64,000 bases of DNA from Alphaproteobacteria bacterium (GTDB lineage: Bacteria > Pseudomonadota > Alphaproteobacteria > UBA828): contig CBDCCI010000002.1 of NCBI GenBank assembly GCA_965214705.1, positions 2,624,001-2,688,000 on the forward strand. Direction: 5' to 3'. How positions within the stretch are numbered: the stretch's first letter is position 1; the number at the start of each line of letters is the position of its first letter. The notes below the pieces were generated by a model. The model was given only the letters and a program-made list of their open reading frames with translations, did not search any database and was not told where the DNA came from. Below are positions 1-14,382 of this stretch, in pieces. The position numbers and the translations under genes were made by a program.

Positions 1-124
1 ACGTCAAGTAAGGCTCATAAGCCCCTTGGCAATGCCTGTGCGAACGACCATGAGCGCCGTCAATGTGCAGACCGGGTGCGAGAGCGCCGGCTCAAGCAAC
101 GGTCCGGGGGCGTGGCGCGTGTTG

Positions 125-197
125 TTTCCCGGATTGATTGACGACGGATTTCCCGGGTTATTTCGGGTGACGGGCGCGCGTATTTCCCGGACTGATC
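125..197 (+). repeat. Three subterminal repeats (putative transposase-binding sites)
   Basis: TTTCCCGGATTGATT (125), TTTCCCGGGTTATTT (149), TTTCCCGGACTGATC (183). Related inverted copies at about 4436-4450, 4461-4477 and 4496-4508. Confidence 0.75.
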
Positions 198-441
198 GGT
201 CATTGCCGGAAGGGGGACAGGGTGCCGGGGTGTCGGACGGCCGTCGGCGCGTCAAGCCGCTGCGCGGCTCCTCCGCTTCGCTACGGCCCTTCGGGTGACC
301 CGCCGCCGTCCATCCGACGAAGTGCATCCATGGCCGTAAGCGGAGCTTTCGGCCACGGGCCGATCGCTCGACGCATTGTCGTTTTTTGAGCCCGAGAGGC
401 GCCTGGGGGGCGGTTCCGGCGGGCGGTTCCCGCTCGAACTC

Positions 442-1509
442 CTAGGGATGGGCGGAACCGGGAGGCGGGAACCGCGAGGCGTCCGGATGGCGGCTGCCAT
501 TGGCGGCGTCGTCCGGCGCGGCGTTCTCGGTTTCGCCTGTGACGAGGCTGTAATGTCCCTCGGCGTCGTGCCGGATGCGTCCCTCACGGACGAGCTTTCG
601 CAGGATGGCGCCCACGGTCTTGTGCCGGGTTGCGGCGCGCTCCCGGATCTGGCGCTGGGAGAGCGGCGCGTCGGCTTCGGCGAGGGCCTGGAGGATGCGC
701 CGTTCAGGGGTTTCGGGCCGCGGCGCGGCATCGCCGGTCTCGACCTGGCGGAGGCGCAGCGCGGGCCCCTTGCCGTCGTCGGCGAGCTCGATTTCGATGT
801 CGTTGAGGCCGGGGGCGGCGCGATGCTCGACGGTCATGAGGATCTGCCTGTCTCGCCGGCGCAGGTACAGATTGGAGTCGCCCCAGGCGTGCAGCTCGCT
901 GCTTCCGCGCAGGGCCTGGCCCGGCCTGGCGGCGCCGCTCTTTCGTGCGTGGTGGACCAGCAGCACGGCGGTCTCGAAGCGGCGCTGGACGTCGCGCAGG
1001 AAGCCGAGGATGGGGGCGACCTCGGCGACGGTGTTCTCGTCGATGCCGTGCAGGCGGACCAGGGGGTCGAGGACCACGAGGCGGGGCCGGACGCGTTCCA
1101 CCGTTTGCACCAGGCGCTGACGGTCCGCGCGATGATCGAGGCGCAGCGCGGGCACGTCGATGACCGCGATGTCGAGGGCGTCGAAGCGGGCGCCGGCGGC
1201 GCTCGCGATACCCTGGAGGCGGGCACGCACGATGTGCCCGGCGTCCTCGGCGGCGAACAGCAGGACCGGGCCCGGCCGGTCGGCGGCGAAGCGGCGCAGG
1301 CATGGGACGCCGGCGGCGACCGCGACGGCGATGTCGAGCGCGAGGAAGGACTTGCCGCACTTCGGCTCGCCGCCGACGATGCCGACGGCCTGGCGCCCCC
1401 AGAGCCCGTCGATGAGCCACTGCTGCTGGCGCGGCCGGTCCTCCAGCTCGATCGGCGCCCGCGTCGGGAAGCCGGTCATCGCCATGCCCTCGGTGGCGAC
1501 GCTGTTCAT
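442..1509 (-). CDS. RecA-fold AAA_25 / RepA-like (SF4 helicase-like) ATPase with C-terminal winged HTH
   Basis: Walker A GEPKCGKS, Walker B LVVLDP, LLVHH and LRGSS motifs; C-terminal ILQALAEADAPLSQRQI... wHTH-like segment. ATG at 1509 overlaps the upstream stop (ATGA). Confidence 0.8.
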   Translation of the reverse strand: MNSVATEGMAMTGFPTRAPIELEDRPRQQQWLIDGLWGRQAVGIVGGEPKCGKSFLALDIAVAVAAGVPCLRRFAADRPGPVLLFAAEDAGHIVRARLQGIASAAGARFDALDIAVIDVPALRLDHRADRQRLVQTVERVRPRLVVLDPLVRLHGIDENTVAEVAPILGFLRDVQRRFETAVLLVHHARKSGAARPGQALRGSSELHAWGDSNLYLRRRDRQILMTVEHRAAPGLNDIEIELADDGKGPALRLRQVETGDAAPRPETPERRILQALAEADAPLSQRQIRERAATRHKTVGAILRKLVREGRIRHDAEGHYSLVTGETENAAPDDAANGSRHPDASRFPPPGSAHP

Positions 1510-2306
1510 GGCTGAAGCTCGTCGAGGGCGGTCTGGATGTGGTTGGCGTTGACGGTCTTTGCCTTGTCGAGGGCGGCGGCCGACAGCGCGTAATGGGCGA
1601 TGCGGTTGATCTGGCGCGGCAGGCCGCGGGTGCCCTGGAACAGGGCCTCGACGGCGGCCTCCTCGAACAGCGGCAGCTCGCATCCGGCGAGCCGGAGGCG
1701 GTGGGTCAGATAGGCGTCGACCTCGTCGCGTTCGAGGCCGGTGAGGTGGTGCCGCACGACGAGGCGCTGGCTGAGGGACTCATGCACCGCCATGGACAGC
1801 CGCCGCCTGAGCTCAGTGAGGCCGACCAGGATGAGGCACATGCGGTTCTCGGAGTCCATGGCGAAGTTGGTCAGCAGGCGGAGATCCTCCAACACGTCGT
1901 TGCGCAGATGGTGGGCCTCGTCGACGACGAGGACGGGGAGCTGCCTGGCTTCCTTGGCGAGGCGGGAGATCTCGGTCCTGATCGCGTGATGGGCCGAGGA
2001 GCGGGATCGCTCGACGGTCAGCCCGAGCTCCCATCCGATGGCCTTGTAGGTGTCGAGCACGTTGCCGGTGGTGAGCGAGACGTAATGGACGCGATACAGC
2101 CCCGGGTGGAGCTGGTCGGTGAGGTGGCGGCAGACGGTGGTCTTGCCGGCGCCGACCTCGCCGGTGAGCAGGCCGATGCCCTTGAGCTCGATGAGGTGGC
2201 CGAGCCTGGCCTCGGCCTCGCGCCGGGCCGAGGATTCGAACAGCTCGTCGGTCTGTGCCGGGGTCTCGAAGGGCATGCCGGTCAGGGCGAAGTGGCGCTG
2301 GTACAT
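1506..2306 (-). CDS. ExeA/TnsC/TniB-like AAA+ transposition ATPase
   Basis: Start MYQRHFAL; Walker A GEVGAGKT, Walker B VLVVDEAH, LSQRL, GLPRQIN. Start overlaps the transposase stop (TGATG). Confidence 0.88.
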   Translation of the reverse strand: MYQRHFALTGMPFETPAQTDELFESSARREAEARLGHLIELKGIGLLTGEVGAGKTTVCRHLTDQLHPGLYRVHYVSLTTGNVLDTYKAIGWELGLTVERSRSSAHHAIRTEISRLAKEARQLPVLVVDEAHHLRNDVLEDLRLLTNFAMDSENRMCLILVGLTELRRRLSMAVHESLSQRLVVRHHLTGLERDEVDAYLTHRLRLAGCELPLFEEAAVEALFQGTRGLPRQINRIAHYALSAAALDKAKTVNANHIQTALDELQP

Positions 2307-3625
2307 CAGTCGTCCTCCTTGAACTTGCGCATCTTGAGCGGCGAGGGCGGCGGCTCGGGCGCCGGGTCGTCGGGTTCGATCTTCTTGGAGTAGTGGCCGC
2401 GCTTCACCGCGGTGTTGGCATAGGCGTCGAGGCGGGTTGCCTGGCCGGCGGGCTTTCCGTCGCAGACCACGTCGAGCGGCCGGCCGGGCGGTGCCTCCGG
2501 GTCGTAGCGCAGCACGACCCTTTCCCCGACCAGGATGGCGTCGACCTCGTAGACGCGACCGTTGAGGCTGACGGTGCGGTCCTTGTGGACCAGCCGCCTG
2601 GCCTCGAAGAGGAAGATGTCGTCGAGGTCGAGCGTGGCGTCGGGGTAGCGGACCGCGACCGAGGCCAACGCCCACTGCTCCAGCGGCGTGCGTCCCTCGA
2701 GGCCGCGATGCGGGGTGTCGTGATACTCGCCCTCGATCCACGCCCAGAGGCTGCGGTTGAGCGTCTGGAGGCTGTCCAGGACCGGCGCATCGAGATGGGC
2801 GAGCCAGCCGGCGCGAAGCGTTCTGAACCAGCGTTCGATCTTGCCCTTTCCGGCTGGCTGATACGGCCTCGCATGCACCAGCACGACGCCCAGTCTTGCG
2901 CAGATCAGGGCGAGATGGCGGGAGCGGTAGGCGGCGCCGTTGTCGACATAAAGGCGCTGCGGCAGCCCGCGGCGGATCAGCGCATTCTTGAACACGGGCA
3001 GGAAGGCCTGGACGTTCTCGGCCGTGGCGAAGGCGGCGAAGGGCACGACCCGGGTGGCGTCGTCGATGAATGCGATGAGGTAGGTCTTGCGCCGGCTCCG
3101 GCCGAAGCGGACCTTGGGCCCGTGCATGACGTCGCTCATCCACAGCTCGCCGGCCTCGCGGAAGGCGAAGCGGCGGCGGTCGGCGCCGTCCGGCGGCTTC
3201 CTGTCGAACAGCCCCTCGCGGCTCAGCAGCCGGTGCACGGTCGAGGGCGCGAGCGGGTGATCGATGCCCTCCTCGGCGGCCGCGCGGATGATCGCGCGCA
3301 CCGGCCAGGCCGGGTTGTCGGCCTTCAGCGCGACCAGGCGCTCGGCGACCTCGGGCGGCAGCCGCCGGGGCTTGCCCCGGTCGGTGCGCGGCTTGGGGTA
3401 GAGCGCCTCGAAGCCGCCATCGCGGTAGTGCCTGATCCACTCCCGCATGGTGTCGGCGGCAACCCGGGTCCGGTCGGTTCCGGGGATGGCATAGGGCTGG
3501 CTGGCCTTCTCGCGAAGCCTGTCGCCGACGCCCTTCGTGCCCAGCGGCAGATGCACCAGATCGGCGATCACGCCGTATCGGAAGAGCGCGATCGCCTGGC
3601 GGAGGTCGTCATCCGATTCCTTCAT
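2306..3625 (-). CDS. DDE integrase/transposase (rve core with Mu-transposase-like C-terminus)
   Basis: N-terminal HTH, WMSD...YVDNG...GKIER catalytic triad, C-terminal RLVHKDRTVSLNGRVYEV beta-barrel. Confidence 0.92.
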   Translation of the reverse strand: MKESDDDLRQAIALFRYGVIADLVHLPLGTKGVGDRLREKASQPYAIPGTDRTRVAADTMREWIRHYRDGGFEALYPKPRTDRGKPRRLPPEVAERLVALKADNPAWPVRAIIRAAAEEGIDHPLAPSTVHRLLSREGLFDRKPPDGADRRRFAFREAGELWMSDVMHGPKVRFGRSRRKTYLIAFIDDATRVVPFAAFATAENVQAFLPVFKNALIRRGLPQRLYVDNGAAYRSRHLALICARLGVVLVHARPYQPAGKGKIERWFRTLRAGWLAHLDAPVLDSLQTLNRSLWAWIEGEYHDTPHRGLEGRTPLEQWALASVAVRYPDATLDLDDIFLFEARRLVHKDRTVSLNGRVYEVDAILVGERVVLRYDPEAPPGRPLDVVCDGKPAGQATRLDAYANTAVKRGHYSKKIEPDDPAPEPPPSPLKMRKFKEDD

Positions 3626-3669
3626 GTCACGGTCCTCGTTCGCGGCCCCTCGGGCCCGGGACCATGACG

Positions 3670-4305
3670 CTAGGCGCCTGGCGGGGGCGGATCAGGCCCC
3701 ATCGAGTGTTGGAGGCCCGGCTTGCGACTCCTCGCGCCGGTTCCGTGGGGTTGGAAGCCCAACGGCGCGGGCAGCGCCTGCAGCTGCCCGGCGACCAGGC
3801 CGCGCAGCGCCATCAATGCGCGGTTGCTTTTGAGCTTGTCGCGCACCGCGCTCATGGTGGCGGCGCAGCCCGCGAGCTTGTCGGGGATCAGGCCGATAAC
3901 GCGGGAAAGGACATCGTGGACGAGATCCACCCGCCGGCGCAGCCAGCGCAGCGCGCCGGGAAGCTCGATGGCGTCATCGTCCTCGGGGCGGCGCACCTCG
4001 TTCGCCGCCTCCTCCTGGCTCTTCGCGCCCTCGGCCGCGACGACAACCGCTTCCAGATCGTCGAGCGTGCCCGGCAGCCGCGCCGCCAGGCAGTCGGCCA
4101 GAAGGCTGATCGTCGTATGGCTCTCGCGGCAATACCAGCGAGGAACCCTCGCGCCGGGCGGGGTCTTCCGCCCGTAGGTGCCGTGGCTTCCCACGGAACA
4201 TCCGCCGTGCGGGTGATTCGGGCAGCGCTCAAGCCTTGCGTCGCGCCACGCCTCGGCCCTAACGTATTCCTCGCCGGTAAGCCCCGTTTCGTAGCGAAGC
4301 TGCAC
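3670..4305 (-). CDS. Cys/His-rich hypothetical protein, first gene of the transposon
   Basis: 211-aa ORF with CPNHPHGGC...HGTY...WYCRESH (possible Zn ribbon) and a helical C-terminus; co-oriented 44 bp upstream of the transposase. Confidence 0.75.
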   Translation of the reverse strand: MQLRYETGLTGEEYVRAEAWRDARLERCPNHPHGGCSVGSHGTYGRKTPPGARVPRWYCRESHTTISLLADCLAARLPGTLDDLEAVVVAAEGAKSQEEAANEVRRPEDDDAIELPGALRWLRRRVDLVHDVLSRVIGLIPDKLAGCAATMSAVRDKLKSNRALMALRGLVAGQLQALPAPLGFQPHGTGARSRKPGLQHSMGPDPPPPGA

Positions 4306-4949
4306 CGGCCATGGCCCGGCGGGAGTCAGCCCGCGCGGGCCTCTTTCTTGTTCCTCGTCAGCCCGAGACTACGGTCCCGCCCCGGCACCGCCAACCGCCG
4401 AAGCCGCGATGCTCGCCGATCTCCCGCTTTCCCCCACCATCCGGGGAAATCCCTGAACCGATCAATGTGAGAAAAATCGCCGACCCGCTATCCGGCTAAA
4501 GCGGGAAACAACAGCGCGGACAATGGGCGTCTGTCGACGCAGTGGCGAGACGCATGGAAGGGCGTTGGCCAAGAGGGGAGAGTGGAGCGCGGGCGATGCC
4601 GGAGCGGAGCGACGCATCGCCCGGCGCGACACGATGCAGGAGGGGCCGATGCAGGAACAGAGCGCGATGGCGCGGAGCGCCGAGCGCGGGATGGCGAGCC
4701 GTGGCCGGCGCAACGCACTTTTAACTATAGGGGGAGGCGGCAGGGCATTCGGTGACGGTGCGCAGACCCGGGCCGAAGCGTCTAGCGTCACGACACTCGG
4801 GACTGGCGCGAACGACGAAGGCGCGCATGCGCCGAGTTGGGCGCGAGACCGGAGTGGATCGCGGCTCATCACAGGCTGAGGATTGGAGCGTGAGCAGCGG
4901 GGACGCGCAAGCGCCAAGCCGGAGGGCTTAGCGTCGATGCGCGACGTTG

Positions 4950-5667
4950 GGTACCCTTGTCGTTGCCCCTGCCGGGCCGGCCGAAGCAGATGCGGAACAT
5001 GTGGTGCGACTGAAGGTGCGTGAACGCCCGGGTGCGCTGACGGGTGCCGTCGCCCAGGATCCGCGCCACCGCCAGTGTCGTGTTGTCATAGAGGATCGAG
5101 CGCGGGATCCCGCCGAGGAAGGCGAAGGCGCTGACGTGTCCGTCGAGGAAGGCCTCCGTCGTCTCCCGCGGATAGGCCTTCACGAACCACACGTCGGAGT
5201 GCGGCAGGATCAGGCAGAAGATAGCGACCTTCTCGCGAATGCCCCGACCTCGACTGTCGCCTCGCCGAAGTCGACCTGGGCATGGCCGGGCGGGTGATGC
5301 AGCGGAACGAAGGCCTCGCACGTCGTCTGGCGGCGGGCCCGGACATAGTCCTTCACGATCGTGTAGCCGCCGCTGAACCCGTGCTCGTCCCGAAGCCGCT
5401 CGAAGATCCGATGCACCGTGTGCCGCGTTTGCGCGGAACCTCCGGATCGGCGTCCGCCTCCAGGATCGCATCGATGATCCCGGTGAACCCGTCCAGCTTC
5501 GGACGCCGCACAGGCTTCGTCCGCCGGTAGCCCGGCGGCGCCGAATAGCTCAGCATCTTCTTCACCGTCCGGCGGTCGATCCCGAACCGCCGACCGGCCT
5601 CATGATGGCTCAGCCCCTCCTCGGCAACCGCTAGCCGAACCGCCGCATAAAGCTCCACGCCGCACAT
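4950..5667 (-). pseudogene. istA: IS21-family transposase IstA, frameshifted and truncated
   Basis: Three consecutive frames: VELYAAVRLAV...RPKLDGFTGIID / RIFERLRDEHGFSGGYTIVKDY...AQVDFGEA / FVKAYPRETTEAFLDGH...YDN...GNDKG. No istB follows. Confidence 0.88.
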
Positions 5668-5704
5668 CTCCCGCCCCGTGCCCGAACAGACAAGGCACCA
5701 TGAA

Positions 5705-5778
5705 TGGCGCATTTTTGCGCCGCCGCGACCGGACCGACCGGCCGCTCCGCGTGGAGCATTATTCCGCCGCTGTTAACA
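5705..5778 (-). mobile_element. IS21 terminal region
   Basis: On the minus strand it begins TGTTAACA and carries two related repeats (GCGGCGGAATAATGCTCCA, GCGGCGGCGCAAAAATGCGCCA) upstream of istA. Confidence 0.7.
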
Positions 5779-6076: not shown

Positions 6077-6310
6077 TCTTCGCCTTGCGGCGCTCCCGCT
6101 TCTGCTGGTCCTGCTGCTTTTGATCGCGGTCGATCTCGGCCTGGTCCCCCTTGAGGTCGGTCTCGATCTGCGCCGACAGCCGTTTCCTCTCGACCGCCGC
6201 GCCGGCGCGGCGGTCGAGGTGCTTCCTGAAGGTCTCGGGTTCAAGCCCGAAACAAGATGCCTCCCGCTCTCACGCCGCTCTTCGAAGAATCCCCGTCGTA
6301 GTTAATCCTA

Positions 6311-7529
6311 GTGTCATGTCACATACGATATGTCGCCCATTTCATGATAGCTTTCTCGTCGTCGCACGACGGCGAGGAGGCTGGCATGAAGCGTTACGTG
6401 GTGACTTTGGAGAAGGAGGAGCGGGACGAGCTCGCAGAGATCACGCGCAAGGGCTCTCATCAGTCACAGAAGGTGATCAACGCGCTGATCCTGCTCAACT
6501 GCGACGAAGGCGAGTTCAACGAGCACCGGGCGCACGGGGAGGCCATTGCGGAGATCCTGCGCATCAGTGCGCGCAAGGTGGAGCGGGTCAAGAAGCGTTT
6601 CGTCGAGGCGGGCATGGCGGCGGCGCTCGGTGGCCGGCAGGGTCGCCGTCCCAGCTACGTGCGCAAGGCCGACGGCGAGTTCGAGGCGCACTTGGTGGCG
6701 CTGAGCTGCGCCGAGCCGCCGGAGGGCCACTCGCAGTGGTCGCTGCGGTTGCTGGCGGACCGCATCGTGGAACTCGGCCACATCGACAGCGTGTCGCACG
6801 AGACGGTGCGCCGGGTGCTAAAAAAAACGCAATCAAGCCGTGGCGGCGCGTCGGCTGGGTGATTCCCCCACAGGGCAACGCGGACTTCGCCGCGGCGATG
6901 GAGAAGGTTCTCGACGTCTACCGGCGTCCCTACGATGCAGCCTTTCCGGTGGTGTGCATGGACGAGACGCCCCGGCAACTGATCGGCGAGACACGCGAAC
7001 CGGTTCCGGCAGCGCCGGGTCGGCCGGCGCGCGAAGACTACGAGTACCGACGTTGCGGAAGCTGCAACGTGTTCATGGCGACCGAACCCCTGGCCGGGCG
7101 GCGTATGACCAAGGTGACGGCGCGCAGAACCAAAACCGACTGGGCGCACTTCCTCAACGACATCGCCGAGCGCCACCCCCGCGCCAAGAGGATCACGCTT
7201 GTGATGGACAACCTGAACACCCACCGCCCCGGCGCCCTCTACGAGGCATTTCCGCCGGACCAGGCCAAGGCGCTGTGGGACCGCTTCGAGTTCGTCTACA
7301 CGCCCAAGCACGGCAGTTGGCTCAACGTCGCCGAGGTCGAGCTCAACGTCATGATCCGTCAGTGTCTCAACCGCCGCATCGCCTCCCTCGAAGTCCTGCG
7401 CGACGAGGTCGCGGCTTGGCAGGCGTCCCGAGACCGCATCCGGGGCAACGTCAACTGGCAGTTCACCACGGACGACGCACGGGTGAAGCTGAAACGCCTC
7501 TATCCGACAGTTGATGAATGACAGGACAC
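6311..7529 (+). mobile_element. IS630-family insertion sequence
   Basis: IR GTGTCATGTCA / TGACAGGACAC, flanked by TA at 6309-6310 and 7530-7531. Confidence 0.9.
6386..7521 (+). CDS. IS630 transposase (orfA/orfB joined by -1 frameshift at an A8 run near 6820-6827)
   Basis: OrfA MKRYVVTL...WSLRLLA...VSHETVRRVLKK; OrfB VVCMDE...VMDNLNTH...TPKHGSWLNVAEVE. Confidence 0.9.
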
Positions 7530-11252: not shown

Positions 11253-12286
11253 ATGCAAGTTGGCCTTCACCAGTTTCACGCCGACACGATCGAGTGGTTG
11301 AGCAAGGCGGTCCTGGAGGAGGGCCGCACTCGCAGTTCTCTTGCCCGCGATCTCTGCGCGCTGGAGGACTGGACCGGCGATCGGGGCGAGCACTGCCTTG
11401 CGTCGGCGCGCAAGGCTCTGCCGGTTCTGGCGGACAAGCTGGGGCTCGCGCTGCCGGCGGCGCGGGCGGCGTTCGGCCGGGGGCGTCGCGAGGGTGCGGC
11501 CATCGAAGCCTTCCCCGATCTCTCGCTTCGCTGTCGGCTCACGGATTTGGGCTCGGTGACGCTGGAGTTGGTCGACGGCGATGCCGAGCGGCGCCTGTGG
11601 CAAGCGATGATTGCAACGCACCACCCGCAGGGCTGGGCGCGGGCTCCGGGCGGGCAGCTGCGCTACTGGGTGCGTTCCTCGCTTCATGGCCGCCTCGGCG
11701 GCATCGGGTTTTGCGCCGCGAGCTGGCACCAGAAGGCGCGCGACGACTTTATCGGCTGGTCGGCGGACGCGCGGGCTTTGAACCTGCCGCTGGCGATCAA
11801 CAACCATCGCTTCCTGCTTCTGCCCGGCGTGCGCGTCCACGGTCTGGCCTCGCGGGTGCTGGAGCTGGCGGCCGGCCGCGTGGCGGGAGACTGGGAGGCG
11901 GCGTACACCGCGCGCCCGGTCCTGGCCTACAGCTATGTCGGCCCCGAGCATGCCGGCACCTGCTACCGGGCGGCGGGCTGGCGGTGCTGTCCCCAGCACA
12001 CCTCGGGCCAGCCGCCGGGGTCCGCCGCCGGGGCGGCGCGGACGGTGTGGATGAAGCCGCTGGCGGCGGATTGGCAGGCCATCTTGTGCGCCGAGCCGGC
12101 GCGGGATATCCGTGCGGCGCCGGCGTTGCACATGGACGAGGACACGGACTGGGCGGGGCGGGAATATGCGCGCAGCACGCATCCTGACGGCCGGGTCCGC
12201 GATCGGATCGAGCGCATGGGACGGGCGTGGCTGGAGCGCCCGGGGGCCGCGATCCCGGCGATCTTTCCGGCCAAGCCGGATCGCAA
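11253..12286 (+). pseudogene. N-terminal part of DUF4338 (DruA-like)-Tn5 transposase fusion
   Basis: LWQAMIATHH...QLRYWV...AASWHQKARDDFIGW...NNHRFLLLP...LASRVL...GTCYRAAGW, followed by a Tn5-type DNA-binding segment DWAGREY...DGRVRDRI. Confidence 0.82.
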
Positions 12287-14382
12287 CCCATCTTTGCCAT
12301 TTTGGCGCGCGCCTGCGACCTAAGTAGTTGCGATGATGGGCTGATTTTCTGGCCCATCTGGGATTATGGCACTACGTTTGTGCGCTCATCGCGACACTCC
12401 CGGGAGCACCGCCCGGCGCCTGTGGGGATCCACCGTGAGGCCCGCCGCCTGCGCGATGACGCGCGCCTCGGCGTCGGGTTGAGCATCCTGGCGGATGACG
12501 ATGCGGTTTCCGTCCACCTCCCGGATGGTGGAGGTGAGACGCACCCAGCCCGCGAGCTTGTCGCGGATCGTACTCCAGCGGTCATGCAAGCCGTGCGCCG
12601 CCAGACGGGTTCGCAGCAGATGAACCGCGTGGTAGGCGAGGACGGCGATGAACAGGTGGGCGGCGATGCGCGAGGTCTTGGAGTGCCAGACCGGGCGCAG
12701 GCCGATTTCGGATTTCAGGCTGCGGAAGGTGGCCTCGAGCTCTGTGAGCTTCCAGTAGGTTCGGACCACGGTTTCAAGATCCCACTCGACGTGGCTGGTG
12801 CGCAGCACATAGATGCCCGCTTGGCGGTCGCGCTCGGCATGGAGAGCGTTGCGCCTCCAGCGGACCGCACTGGCCCGCCCCTTCTCTCCGGGCTCGACCT
12901 CGATGTCGTACTGACGGTGGACGCGCCTGTACCTTTCCTTCAGCCGGCCCAGCTTCTCCATCACCTTGGTGAACTGCTTGATGTGGTTCTTCTTCGACAG
13001 CCCGCCATGCAGGGCGCGCAGGGCGTCCTCGAAGTTGTGACGCTGACGGGCGAGCACGGCCTCGTCCTTCTGCTGGCGCTCATGGCTCCAGACGCACAGG
13101 TGCGCTTCGTCGTCCCCTGCCGCGAGACGCCAGGCGCGGGCATCGTGGCCGGCCCGGGTTTCGAAGGCGGCATCGGCTTCGCGCCCGGGCGGCGCCGAGA
13201 CGCCGCGGCGAACGGTGATCCAGTGATAGCCGCCCGCCCGCAGCCAGGCGAGGTTGGCCTCGGTGGAGATGCCGGCGTCCATGATGACCGTGGGCCTGGG
13301 GGCGTTGCTGCCGCGCGCTTGGCATTCCAGCCGCCCGATGGCGTCGGCGAGAGTGGCCGGCTCGGAGATGTTGCCGGGCAGGATCTCGCTGTGCTGCGGA
13401 AAGCCGGCCTGGTTCAGCGACAGGGCCAGGGTCACGATCGGACAATCGTCACGCCTCTGCTTCGAGCGCCCGAAGCGGGCCAGCGCGGAGCTGGGCCGTC
13501 CGGTCATATGGGTGTTGGTCAGGTCGAAGAAGACGATGGTGTCGGGGATGCCGAAGAGATCGCGCTCCCGGGCGCACAGCGCCTCTTCAAGCGCCGCGCG
13601 GTGACGCCACAAGAGGTCGCCGATGCGGTAGAGCTTGCTGAGCGTGAGCGACTTGCCGCTGTCGACATCGAGCAACTCCAGGGTCGCGCTGTTCGCGCTC
13701 AGCCAGCGGAAGGCCTCGCGCTCGCTGGAGGGATGGATCATGCGCGCGACCACCAGTGCCGCCGCGATGCGTGCGTCGCGCTCACTTGCGCCCAGCCTCT
13801 CCAGCGTCTCGATGAAGCGAAGGTCGTCAAGCGCGGCGAGAGCCAGGCGCTCGCAGCCCACCGAGCGGACCTGTTCGTGGGAGAGGCTATCGAGACGGAC
13901 CGTGGCCAGGTCGCTCTCGTCCCCGGGCCGCGACGCGCCGAGATCGCGGGCGTGAAGCCGCCGTACGACGTCCTCGGCGACGGGGCGCAAGGCGGCATCC
14001 GGCTCCAGCAGCGGCTCGCTGCCGGCGAGAAGGGTTTCGATCAGAAGCGCCAATTCGCGCCATTGCTCCTCGGGCACACCGAAGTCGGCGCCGAGATTGA
14101 GGAGCGTGACCTGGCGCACCCTTCCGCCGATGCGTTCGCTGCGCACGAGGCGGTAGGTGGCATAGCGCTCGCCACCGTCTCCGCGACCGGTGAGGGTTTT
14201 GCGAATGAACATGGCGGCAGGGTCACGGACAGTTTGCGGACTGTCAAGGAGCGCCGGCCCACAGACCAAAGATTATGGCACTACAATGGACTTCCCAAAA
14301 CACAATCCAACAAAATCAGTGCCTTAGATCCCAAAGGCTACCCAAAATCAGGCCTTCGGGACCGAAAAGTGGCAAAGATGGG
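12287..14382 (-). mobile_element. IS1634-family insertion sequence
   Basis: IR CCCATCTTTGCCA(T/C)TTT at both ends; 4-bp TSD GCAA (12283-12286, 14383-14386). Confidence 0.88.
12386..14212 (-). CDS. IS1634-family transposase
   Basis: MFIRKT...YRLVRSERIGGRVRQVTLLNLG; FFDLTN, FGRSK, GNISE, VIMDAG, EATFRSLKSEIGLRPVWH. Confidence 0.9.
   Translation of the reverse strand: MFIRKTLTGRGDGGERYATYRLVRSERIGGRVRQVTLLNLGADFGVPEEQWRELALLIETLLAGSEPLLEPDAALRPVAEDVVRRLHARDLGASRPGDESDLATVRLDSLSHEQVRSVGCERLALAALDDLRFIETLERLGASERDARIAAALVVARMIHPSSEREAFRWLSANSATLELLDVDSGKSLTLSKLYRIGDLLWRHRAALEEALCARERDLFGIPDTIVFFDLTNTHMTGRPSSALARFGRSKQRRDDCPIVTLALSLNQAGFPQHSEILPGNISEPATLADAIGRLECQARGSNAPRPTVIMDAGISTEANLAWLRAGGYHWITVRRGVSAPPGREADAAFETRAGHDARAWRLAAGDDEAHLCVWSHERQQKDEAVLARQRHNFEDALRALHGGLSKKNHIKQFTKVMEKLGRLKERYRRVHRQYDIEVEPGEKGRASAVRWRRNALHAERDRQAGIYVLRTSHVEWDLETVVRTYWKLTELEATFRSLKSEIGLRPVWHSKTSRIAAHLFIAVLAYHAVHLLRTRLAAHGLHDRWSTIRDKLAGWVRLTSTIREVDGNRIVIRQDAQPDAEARVIAQAAGLTVDPHRRRAVLPGVSR

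Follow-up and report, generated by a model that had tools for sequence, protein, structure and literature searches.

Why would a bacterial transposon carry, immediately behind its transposition ATPase, a gene whose product resembles the helicases of plasmids and phages? The question is raised by a stretch of 64,000 nucleotides (nt) from Alphaproteobacteria bacterium (Pseudomonadota; Alphaproteobacteria; UBA828; assembly GCA_965214705.1, contig CBDCCI010000002.1, positions 2,624,001 to 2,688,000), referred to below as the window, near whose first base lies a transposon with four genes: orfZ, a DDE transposase gene, an ExeA-like ATPase gene and a RepA-like gene. We find that the RepA-like gene is one alternative occupant of a conserved fourth slot and no universal core gene, and we infer, with a probability of about one half, that this slot is an exchangeable replisome-interface module through which a helicase is supplied to replicate or repair the strand-transfer intermediates of transposition.

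The RepA-like gene and its transposition operon

The four genes are co-directional and tightly packed on the minus strand, in the order orfZ, transposase, ATPase, RepA-like gene (Table 1). The transposase stop overlaps the ATPase start within TGATG (2308-2304), and the ATG of the RepA-like gene (1509-1507) shares an ATGA with the TGA of the ATPase gene (1508-1506), giving the 4-nt overlap at 1509-1506 that a preliminary description of the locus had reported. From this coupling, the RepA-like gene is predicted to be the final cistron expressed from the operon for transposition. The transposase carries Mu-transpos_C (27.4 bits against a cut-off of 21.7), and the ATPase matches both AAA_22 (91.5 bits against a cut-off of 27) and the PHROG family 'DNA transposition protein' (E=3e-27).

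The RepA-like protein has every RecA/SF4-type (helicase superfamily 4) motif that had been ascribed to it: the Walker A sequence GGEPKCGKS and the Walker B sequence LVVLDPL are unchanged in 26 of 26 aligned homologs, and the downstream HH..K and RGSS motifs are intact in the same alignment and when aligned to RSF1010 RepA (1g8y). This protein is also its best solved relative by sequence (E=9.5e-9, residues 42-206), and the top Foldseek matches of a model whose overall predicted local distance difference test (pLDDT) value is only 57 are the RecA-fold ring ATPases KaiC, RadA/Sms, DnaB and Rad51. Primase/helicase families of PHROGs match the protein, and its nearest other Atlas clusters are proteins with AAA_25 and a helix-turn-helix (HTH), part of them from tailed phages. 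By its motifs the protein belongs to the AAA_25 / RSF1010 RepA-like SF4 family. It does not qualify as a DnaB (DnaB_C 16.9 bits against a cut-off of 27, no match to the N-terminal DnaB domain), and no primase domain was found in it with Pfam, NCBIfam or PHROGs, as the preliminary description had also stated. The C-terminal winged HTH proposed there is borne out as well: HTH_24 and MarR_2 match residues 269-313 below their cut-offs, the ortholog at locus L012 passes HTH_IclR (24.1 bits against 22), and residues 268-322 of the AlphaFold model form three helices and a beta-hairpin (pLDDT 74-87).

The gene lies within a sharply bounded mobile unit, flanked by inverted repeats as had been described. 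The window's own genome contains three copies of the 4394-bp element, two identical and the third with two single-nucleotide polymorphisms, whose termini read TGTTGTTTCCCG / CGGGAAACAACA, with TTTCCCGG-like subterminal repeats running inward from the left terminus to ~200. The window copy stands between two GCGCG target-site duplications and the other copies between CGGGG/CGGGG and CCGT(T); the duplication is thus 5 bp in two of the three copies and four matching bases in the remaining one. A fourth copy in this genome (L004) is 81% identical and has the same four genes, sister genomes hold up to at least 30 element copies, and most copies are simple insertions flanked by target-site duplications.

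A search of 49 genomes of the order at E<=1e-40 recovered the protein in nine, all of one genus, with up to at least 42 matches per genome. Among the matches listed for each genome, every window-type transposase copy in G046 (30/30), G042 (20/20), G045 (9/9), G039 (1/1) and G030 (1/1) has a RepA-like gene ~0.8 kb, or one ATPase gene, downstream. The remaining RepA-like copies (66-82% identical) follow a second, 'clade 2' pair of transposase and ATPase, respectively 26-28% and 27-30% identical to those of the window, with the gene order unchanged, and here too every full-length clade-2 transposase copy among those matches is accompanied by the gene (12/12 in G039, 16/16 in G045). The 4-nt ATGA/GTGA overlap is kept in 14 of 14 RepA-bearing loci of both clades. 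The window-type copies that have no RepA-like gene are those at L005 and L006, one in G048 (a genome without a RepA-like gene at E<=1e-40), one at a contig end in G034 and one fragment in G043. At L018/L070, in G048, the transposase is 84% identical, the ATPase match breaks off at residue 182 and a long open frame continues beyond it.

In a genome scan with one genome per species, anchored on the transposase alignment, the best 80 of at least 516 relatives were all of clade 1 (57-93% identity); orfZ, transposase and ATPase occur together in 79 of these 80 loci (L092 and L104 end at a contig edge), and 46 of them (~9 assemblies) have the RepA-like gene behind the ATPase gene, whereas 34 lack it. 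In a metagenome scan that took a more distant member of the family as its anchor and covered the best 80 of ~500 or more relatives, none of the 80 loci has it. The earlier interpretation, that the gene is core rather than cargo, is supported in part: the gene moves with the mobile unit, all full-length copies checked lie behind the pair, the coupling is fixed in 14 of 14 loci and selection on it resembles that on the core genes, but the term 'core gene' is not supported as it stands: the pair often lacks it (34/80 genome and 80/80 metagenome loci), and a sister element has a gene for 73 amino acids (aa) in its place. Against five relatives, the ratio of non-synonymous to synonymous substitution rates is 0.27-0.39 for the RepA-like gene, compared with 0.19-0.31 for the transposase, 0.18-0.22 for the ATPase and 0.26-0.44 for orfZ, values that indicate purifying selection on the RepA-like gene, like that on the transposase.

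These observations bear on the idea that the module is a mere passenger, either phage or plasmid cargo or the remnant of a replicon whose helicase, with or without a primase, replicates an excised circle. A helicase plus a primase is indeed the logic of RSF1010, proteins with AAA_25 and HTH occur in tailed phages, and the module has crossed horizontally between clades. Nevertheless, the fixed position and 4-nt coupling in all 14 loci are unlike cargo, the purifying selection matches that seen for the core genes, neither an initiator nor a set of iterons was found, and no relative at E<=1e-20 is present on any of 72,556 plasmid records. In the absence of a TnsA-like nuclease, DDE/Mu-type chemistry releases no circle, and no contig joins 4513 to 120 in four public runs, a weak test that covers contigs only. 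We regard a passenger as very improbable, and the suggestion in the preliminary description that an excised form is replicated is not borne out, with no end-to-end joint in those runs and no plasmid relative. Every full-length copy of the RepA-like protein examined sits in a transposon; going by the search of 72,556 plasmid records, it is no plasmid-replicon helicase.

Several further observations concern the protein and the element. P0049 (597 aa), one of 120 listed homologs, has AAA_22 and AAA_25 fused, probably by read-through of the ATGA overlap; recoding was considered for whole subfamilies with flagged internal stops and rejected, each being a true stop after which the alignment runs into the tail. 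Matching duplications are missing at L005, L037 and L210. At L054 and L059, which lie inverted on the same contig ~43 kb apart, the flanks are swapped (cgggg/ccctc and ccctc/cgggg), on sequence grounds the signature of an inversion between copies. At L012 (1342-1866 and 6105-6431), a macro-domain gene adjoining a gene for an SSB (a protein that binds single-stranded DNA) has been split by insertion of a clade-2 element. Beside the window element (4869-5712 and 6151-7521) lie remains of other insertion sequences, namely the N-terminus of an IS21-like IstA, its frames broken, and an IS630-like transposase spread over two frames that overlap, and its surroundings are a stretch rich in insertion sequences. 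Near-identical element sequence (window 60-4580) is present in contigs from sponge, coral and marine metagenome runs (11 studies, one RNA library), and near-identical elements were found in metagenome-assembled genomes (MAGs) labelled as different phyla. Contigs from the RNA library cover all 30 bins, one of them spanning the ATPase/RepA junction (1391-1623), with DNA carry-over possible.

The product of orfZ, whose gene is present in 79 of the 80 clade-1 genome loci, has no Pfam match and no assignment to TniQ or TnsA from Pfam. Its model (pLDDT 82) reaches a best Foldseek E of 0.03 and a best VIA-align Z of 4.4, with weak HTH-like rows only, and a counterpart on Cupriavidus necator pBB2 is annotated DUF6431. 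Among the four element proteins, TnsA and TniQ/TnsD have no match in Pfam or NCBIfam.

Alternative occupants of the fourth slot

In two sister elements of 3677 bp in the window's own genome (L005 and L006, contig C1; 84% identical across orfZ-transposase-ATPase), the RepA-like gene is replaced by an open reading frame (ORF) of 73 aa (L005:1291-1512, minus strand; L006:4308-4529), with an ATG that likewise overlaps the stop of the ATPase gene, so that the 4-nt overlap is kept in both small-gene loci (2/2). The element at L006 is flanked by a CACGT duplication, that at L005 by none. Where the helicase is absent, the slot ORF is usually 60-110 aa and less often 130-170 aa long. Of the metagenome loci, 53 have an ORF in this position, and in 46 of these it starts at the 4-nt overlap offset; of the remaining loci in that set of 80, 16 have no complete ATPase and 11 no ORF of at least 45 aa, five of the latter with at most 35 nt left.

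The ends of these proteins are unlike those of other ORFs. Among 65 distinct complete slot proteins, 49 end in F, 39 in PF, and 34 have Qxx[LIM][FLWM] (QLDLF, QLSLF and QIALL, for example) in their last 30 residues, compared with 34, 10 and 35, respectively, among 2020 control ORFs of 45-180 aa from the same loci. The PF ends mostly follow acidic residues (...DPDDELPF, ...FDDSIPF), and the 73-aa sister protein, which ends ...QLPLFPELDTPF, has both a clamp-motif-like and an SSB-tip-like sequence. The genome's own main SSB ends DLDDDIPF; DDDIPF is described as the conserved tip of the SSB C-terminus (SSB-Ct) in the relevant part of PMC5872125, and QL(S/D)LF as a beta-clamp pentapeptide in that of PMC9690074, where TnsE of Tn7 is said to bind the clamp. 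The acidic PF ends thus resemble the SSB C-terminal tip and the QLxLF ends the beta-clamp pentapeptide. The small proteins fall into several families without a Pfam match, and nothing significant was found for 13 further ones of 88-170 aa. In the same 7.9-Mb genome there are 35 SSB-family matches (L106-L110, for example), the best of which ends DDDIPF; five other inspected matches have long acidic or Gly-rich tails without this tip.

Complex prediction weakly supports binding of the 73-aa protein to DnaN. The pair of this protein and the genome's own DnaN scored 0.48, against 0.19 for the best of three controls, passing a mark that 116 of 157 solved complexes and 2 of 215 mismatches attain; at scores of 0.60 or below, however, just 18 of the 157 attain it, along with both mismatches. 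The runs shared at least 82% of contacts and the partner had a pLDDT of 67; solved clamp-peptide complexes exist, and the pass may reflect memory.

The slot of the known transposon Tn6049 conforms to the same pattern: its fourth gene (90 aa, 4-nt overlap) has an acidic ...DLADNDF end and shares the motif WTPxQAxAVxELL with the small proteins of clade 1, and an element on a C. necator plasmid has a 65-aa fourth gene ending ...NELDLPF. A third kind of occupant is primase-like. In the second element copy at L068, the slot holds a 295-aa protein with DUF3991 and Toprim domains (12135-13022, plus strand), and a 289-aa homolog of this protein is encoded directly 3' of the RepA-like gene in three of eight sampled clade-2 lineages (L014, L015, L017). 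The clade-2 element with both helicase and Toprim genes measures 5.2 kb, has TGAGCGCACAC repeats (bounds from 3/3 identical G045 copies) and is present in at least 12 copies. At L068:5317-13100 two members of the family lie head to tail, the first RepA-bearing, with an apparently frameshifted RepA-like gene, and the second Toprim-bearing.

The slot product might instead be a target selector. In such a scheme it would, like TnsE or TniQ, recognise a feature of the target and recruit the ATPase to it; a RepA-like ring would encircle replication forks or DNA that is gapped or single-stranded (for example conjugative DNA on its way in), and the small proteins would recognise clamp-loaded DNA. The slot lies directly after the gene for a TnsC-like AAA_22 ATPase and is coupled to it, the element has no TniQ or TnsD match in Pfam or NCBIfam, the clamp-like motifs of 34 of 65 slot proteins recall the TnsE-clamp contact treated in part of PMC9690074, and Tn7-like target selectors are described as modular in a section of PMC10293859. 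On the other hand, a RepA-like protein 82% identical serves ATPases only 27-30% identical, which is awkward for a specific contact, the catalytic motifs of the motor are strictly kept, and a primase-like enzyme in the slot or beside the helicase fits DNA synthesis better than recognition. In a noisy test, 20 of 39 RepA-bearing copies had a positive GC skew in their flanks, which gives no orientation preference; for small-gene copies the skew was positive in 1 of 10, two of which overlap, with local skew again noisy. A term search of the main text of Faure et al. 2023 returned no helicase, RepA, DnaB or primase among its selectors. We consider target selection unlikely, although it is the chief alternative.

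Origin of the helicase module and its non-coding block

The transposase of clade 2 and the Tn6049 transposase encoded on pHS87a, pMOL28 and pMOL30 share 50% identity, which identifies clade 2, by sequence, as the Tn6049 group. The window transposase shares at most 42% identity with any plasmid relative and has no match on the CH34 plasmids at E<=1e-30. A tree of RepA-like proteins, with the single most distant sequence of clade 2 as its root, unites the 13 proteins of clade 1 in one group (Shimodaira-Hasegawa-like approximate likelihood-ratio support 99) within the clade-2 diversity, beside L011/L012 (93). In the transposase tree, one clade (support 100; 15 rows, of which 12 have the RepA-like gene, two a small gene and one is broken) takes in all RepA-bearing elements and is nested among small-gene lineages. 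The simplest reading is that a clade-1 element acquired the helicase module once, from a Tn6049-like element, and that the two then diverged together, with occasional back-swaps through recombination among co-resident elements.

A hairpin-rich non-coding block 3' of the RepA-like gene appears to have accompanied it. The block is ~90% identical to its counterpart in the clade-2 locus L012, and a 13-nt core is present in 13 of 21 RepA-bearing lineages and in none of the three Toprim-carrying ones. Between the two transposase clades the block moves with the gene. RNAalifold predicts a near-invariant 13-bp hairpin and a long-range helix (42 pairs, six with compensatory changes), and Rfam returned no family at E<=1 across window positions 1-4600. 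The palindrome over the RepA-like stop codon has an RNA-fold z of -2.67 (0/200 shuffles as stable), and its counterparts at L012 and L004 have z of -2.1 and -0.48.

With a winged helix in the protein, and with the stop-codon palindrome and a conserved 22-bp palindromic hairpin downstream travelling with the gene, the product might instead be a regulator or an immunity factor, its winged helix binding the end palindromes and its ATPase switch tuning the operon or blocking nearby insertion. A 190-residue RecA-fold motor with invariant Walker motifs would be excessive for a repressor, however, the small and Toprim slot proteins have no DNA-binding domain match in Pfam, and copies often lie a few kb apart (L029, L034, L068), so that strong target immunity is not evident. 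A regulatory role is therefore, in our estimation, improbable.

Table 1. Positions of the element, its genes and associated features, in window coordinates unless a locus is given.
Feature	Position	Strand	Remarks
RepA-like gene	442..1509	-	intact ORF, 355 aa; AAA_25 RecA-fold ATPase + C-terminal winged helix
AAA_25 domain	residues 21-192, nt 934-1449	-	Pfam E=5e-37, 127.9 bits vs cut-off 27
winged helix	residues ~266-322, nt ~544-714	-	model + sub-threshold Pfam
AAA_22/ExeA-like transposition ATPase	1506..2306	-	266 aa; Pfam AAA_22 E=7e-26
DDE transposase	2306..3625	-	439 aa; HTH_32 + rve + Mu-transpos_C
orfZ	3670..4305	-	211 aa; Cys/His-rich beta N-domain + helical domain; always 5' of transposase in family
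whole transposon	120..4513	genes read on -	4394 bp; similarity among copies stops at exactly these bases
target-site duplication, left	115..119		GCGCG; repeated at right flank
target-site duplication, right	4514..4518		GCGCG
terminal inverted repeat TGTTGTTTCCCG	120..131	+	end nearer RepA-like gene
terminal inverted repeat, reverse complement of TGTTGTTTCCCG	4502..4513	-	
hairpin-rich non-coding block	226..375	-	3' of RepA-like gene
imperfect palindrome, GGTTCC/GGAACC units	405..480	-	spans RepA-like stop codon; inverted repeat I24
DUF3991+Toprim gene	L014:1040-1909	-	
DUF3991+Toprim gene	L015:7120-7989	+	
DUF3991+Toprim gene	L017 ~1000-1870	-	

A proposed link from strand transfer to replication

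The reading we prefer, in which the fourth gene connects transposition with the replisome, starts from the chemistry of the chassis, a Zn-ribbon/HTH protein, a DDE transposase with a Mu C-terminal domain, an AAA_22 ATPase and a fourth gene that is always coupled but exchangeable. Without a TnsA-like nuclease, a Mu-type transposase leaves behind forked intermediates, and these require a helicase, priming and a polymerase. By joining the element ends to the target, the window transposase would create such forked strand-transfer intermediates, in need of replication or repair, and the slot protein would link them to the replisome. The ancestral occupant may have been a small adaptor with a C-terminus like the beta-clamp pentapeptide, the SSB tip or both, recruiting host factors. 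In the window lineage this adaptor would have been replaced by a phage- or plasmid-type SF4 RepA-like helicase fused to a winged helix, captured once from a Tn6049-like clade along with the structured non-coding block. The RepA-like protein would load, possibly steered by its winged helix and by the hairpin block near the element end, unwind the element and, either alone with a structured site or together with the Toprim protein, provide a primosome; with its own helicase the element would depend less on host PriA/DnaB loading. The preliminary description had proposed fork targeting or replication of strand-transfer intermediates, and both gain indirect support from slot occupants with clamp-like or SSB-tail-like ends and from the primase-like Toprim protein.

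A number of points weigh against this reading. The helicase activity is predicted from motifs, and neither a clamp motif nor an SSB-tail motif is found on the RepA-like protein itself among the aligned homologs. The likenesses on the small proteins are to short linear motifs. Small-gene elements multiply too, with two copies in the window's own genome, 4-5 in others and, according to the portion of PMC2864759 concerned with it, 12 copies of Tn6049 in CH34; multi-copy small-gene elements imply that the helicase is dispensable for transposition as such. No resolvase was detected among the element's four ORFs with Pfam or NCBIfam; were transposition fully replicative, cointegrates or inversions would remain, and most copies are simple insertions. 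The non-coding block is missing from 8 of 21 RepA-bearing lineages, many loci derive from MAGs, and both trees are quick searches, the RepA tree having its single-sequence root.

Comparison with known systems helps to place the element. Its closest likeness is to Tn6049 of Cupriavidus metallidurans CH34 and Pseudomonas aeruginosa plasmid pHS87a, which likewise combines a small HTH/Zn protein, an IS481-like DDE transposase, an AAA ('gspA'/ExeA-like) ATPase and a fourth gene coupled by 4 nt, and which shares the short TG-initial inverted repeats, 4-5-bp duplications and multi-copy state, as far as PMC4739549 covers them. Tn6049 differs in its length of 3.5 kb and in a fourth gene of 90 aa that encodes no helicase, and the window transposase and ATPase are only ~26-30% identical to those of clade 2. 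The window element is best seen, from sequence and gene order, as a sister group of the Tn6049 type with a shared architecture. Tn6049 received its name in 2010, and the passages of PMC2864759 and PMC4739549 that deal with it remark only on its 'gspA' ATPase and do not study its mechanism. In the literature searched we found no description of the helicase-bearing variant, of a replication-type fourth slot or of the helicase-primase version; the chassis is of a known but unstudied kind.

RSF1010 RepA, which works with the RepB' primase and the RepC initiator, shares its Walker A, Walker B and HH..K motifs with the window protein, and some relatives of the latter have a primase-like neighbour. 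The window protein, however, has an extra C-terminal winged helix and is borne on a transposon, no RepC-like initiator or iterons were found for its element, and none of the searches made marks the Toprim/DUF3991 protein as RepB'-like. The strand-transfer intermediates of phage Mu need helicase loading, and the hand-over of such intermediates to the replisome by a DDE transposon is known in detail only for Mu, via host PriA. Like Mu, the window element has a transposase with rve and Mu-transpos_C, a helper ATPase and 5-bp duplications; in contrast to Mu, which uses host restart proteins (the role of PriA in assembly of the Mu replisome is treated in part of PMC3325207), it encodes a helicase, and its relatives a primase-like protein as well, and its helper ATPase is AAA_22/ExeA-like.

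Tn7 likewise encodes an accessory protein, TnsE, which by way of the beta clamp ties a TnsB/TnsC-type machine to replication, as the part of PMC9690074 devoted to it describes. The window element resembles Tn7 in its TnsB-like transposase (rve and Mu-transpos_C) and AAA+ helper but has no TnsA and no TniQ/TnsD match, and its RepA-like protein has no detected sequence relation to TnsE and no clamp motif. The transposons Tn5053/Tn402 (TniA-TniB-TniQ-TniR) share the operon of transposase and ATPase, TGT-initial inverted repeats and 5-bp duplications, within the coverage of PMC4739549, whereas the window element is without TniQ and serine resolvase. Telomeric TnsBC elements likewise swap accessory modules, according to sections of a preprint, and for Tn3 the hand-over to the replisome is debated as 'hiring' versus 'hijacking' in part of 10.64898/2026.05.30.728999.

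A broader proposal, which we put forward only tentatively, extends the argument to the whole Tn6049 superfamily: its elements may have a slot for SSB-tail or clamp-peptide mimics that call host factors, exchanged in some for a primosome of their own (an SF4 helicase together with a site for its loading, a Toprim primase, or the two combined), which would make the replication step host-independent. If true, host-independent replication could help to explain the presence of at least 30 copies per genome and of near-identical elements in MAGs labelled as different phyla, and short peptides that mimic SSB or clamp ligands may be a general transposon strategy. We know of no other transposon that encodes its own replicative helicase, and if the preferred reading is true the window element would be the first. 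The same transposase/ATPase chassis with an adaptor, a helicase, a primase-like protein, or a helicase and a primase amounts to a set of natural swap experiments, which makes the replication step of transposition testable by exchange of a single gene. Overall, the fourth slot suggests a transposon family that links jumping to DNA replication.

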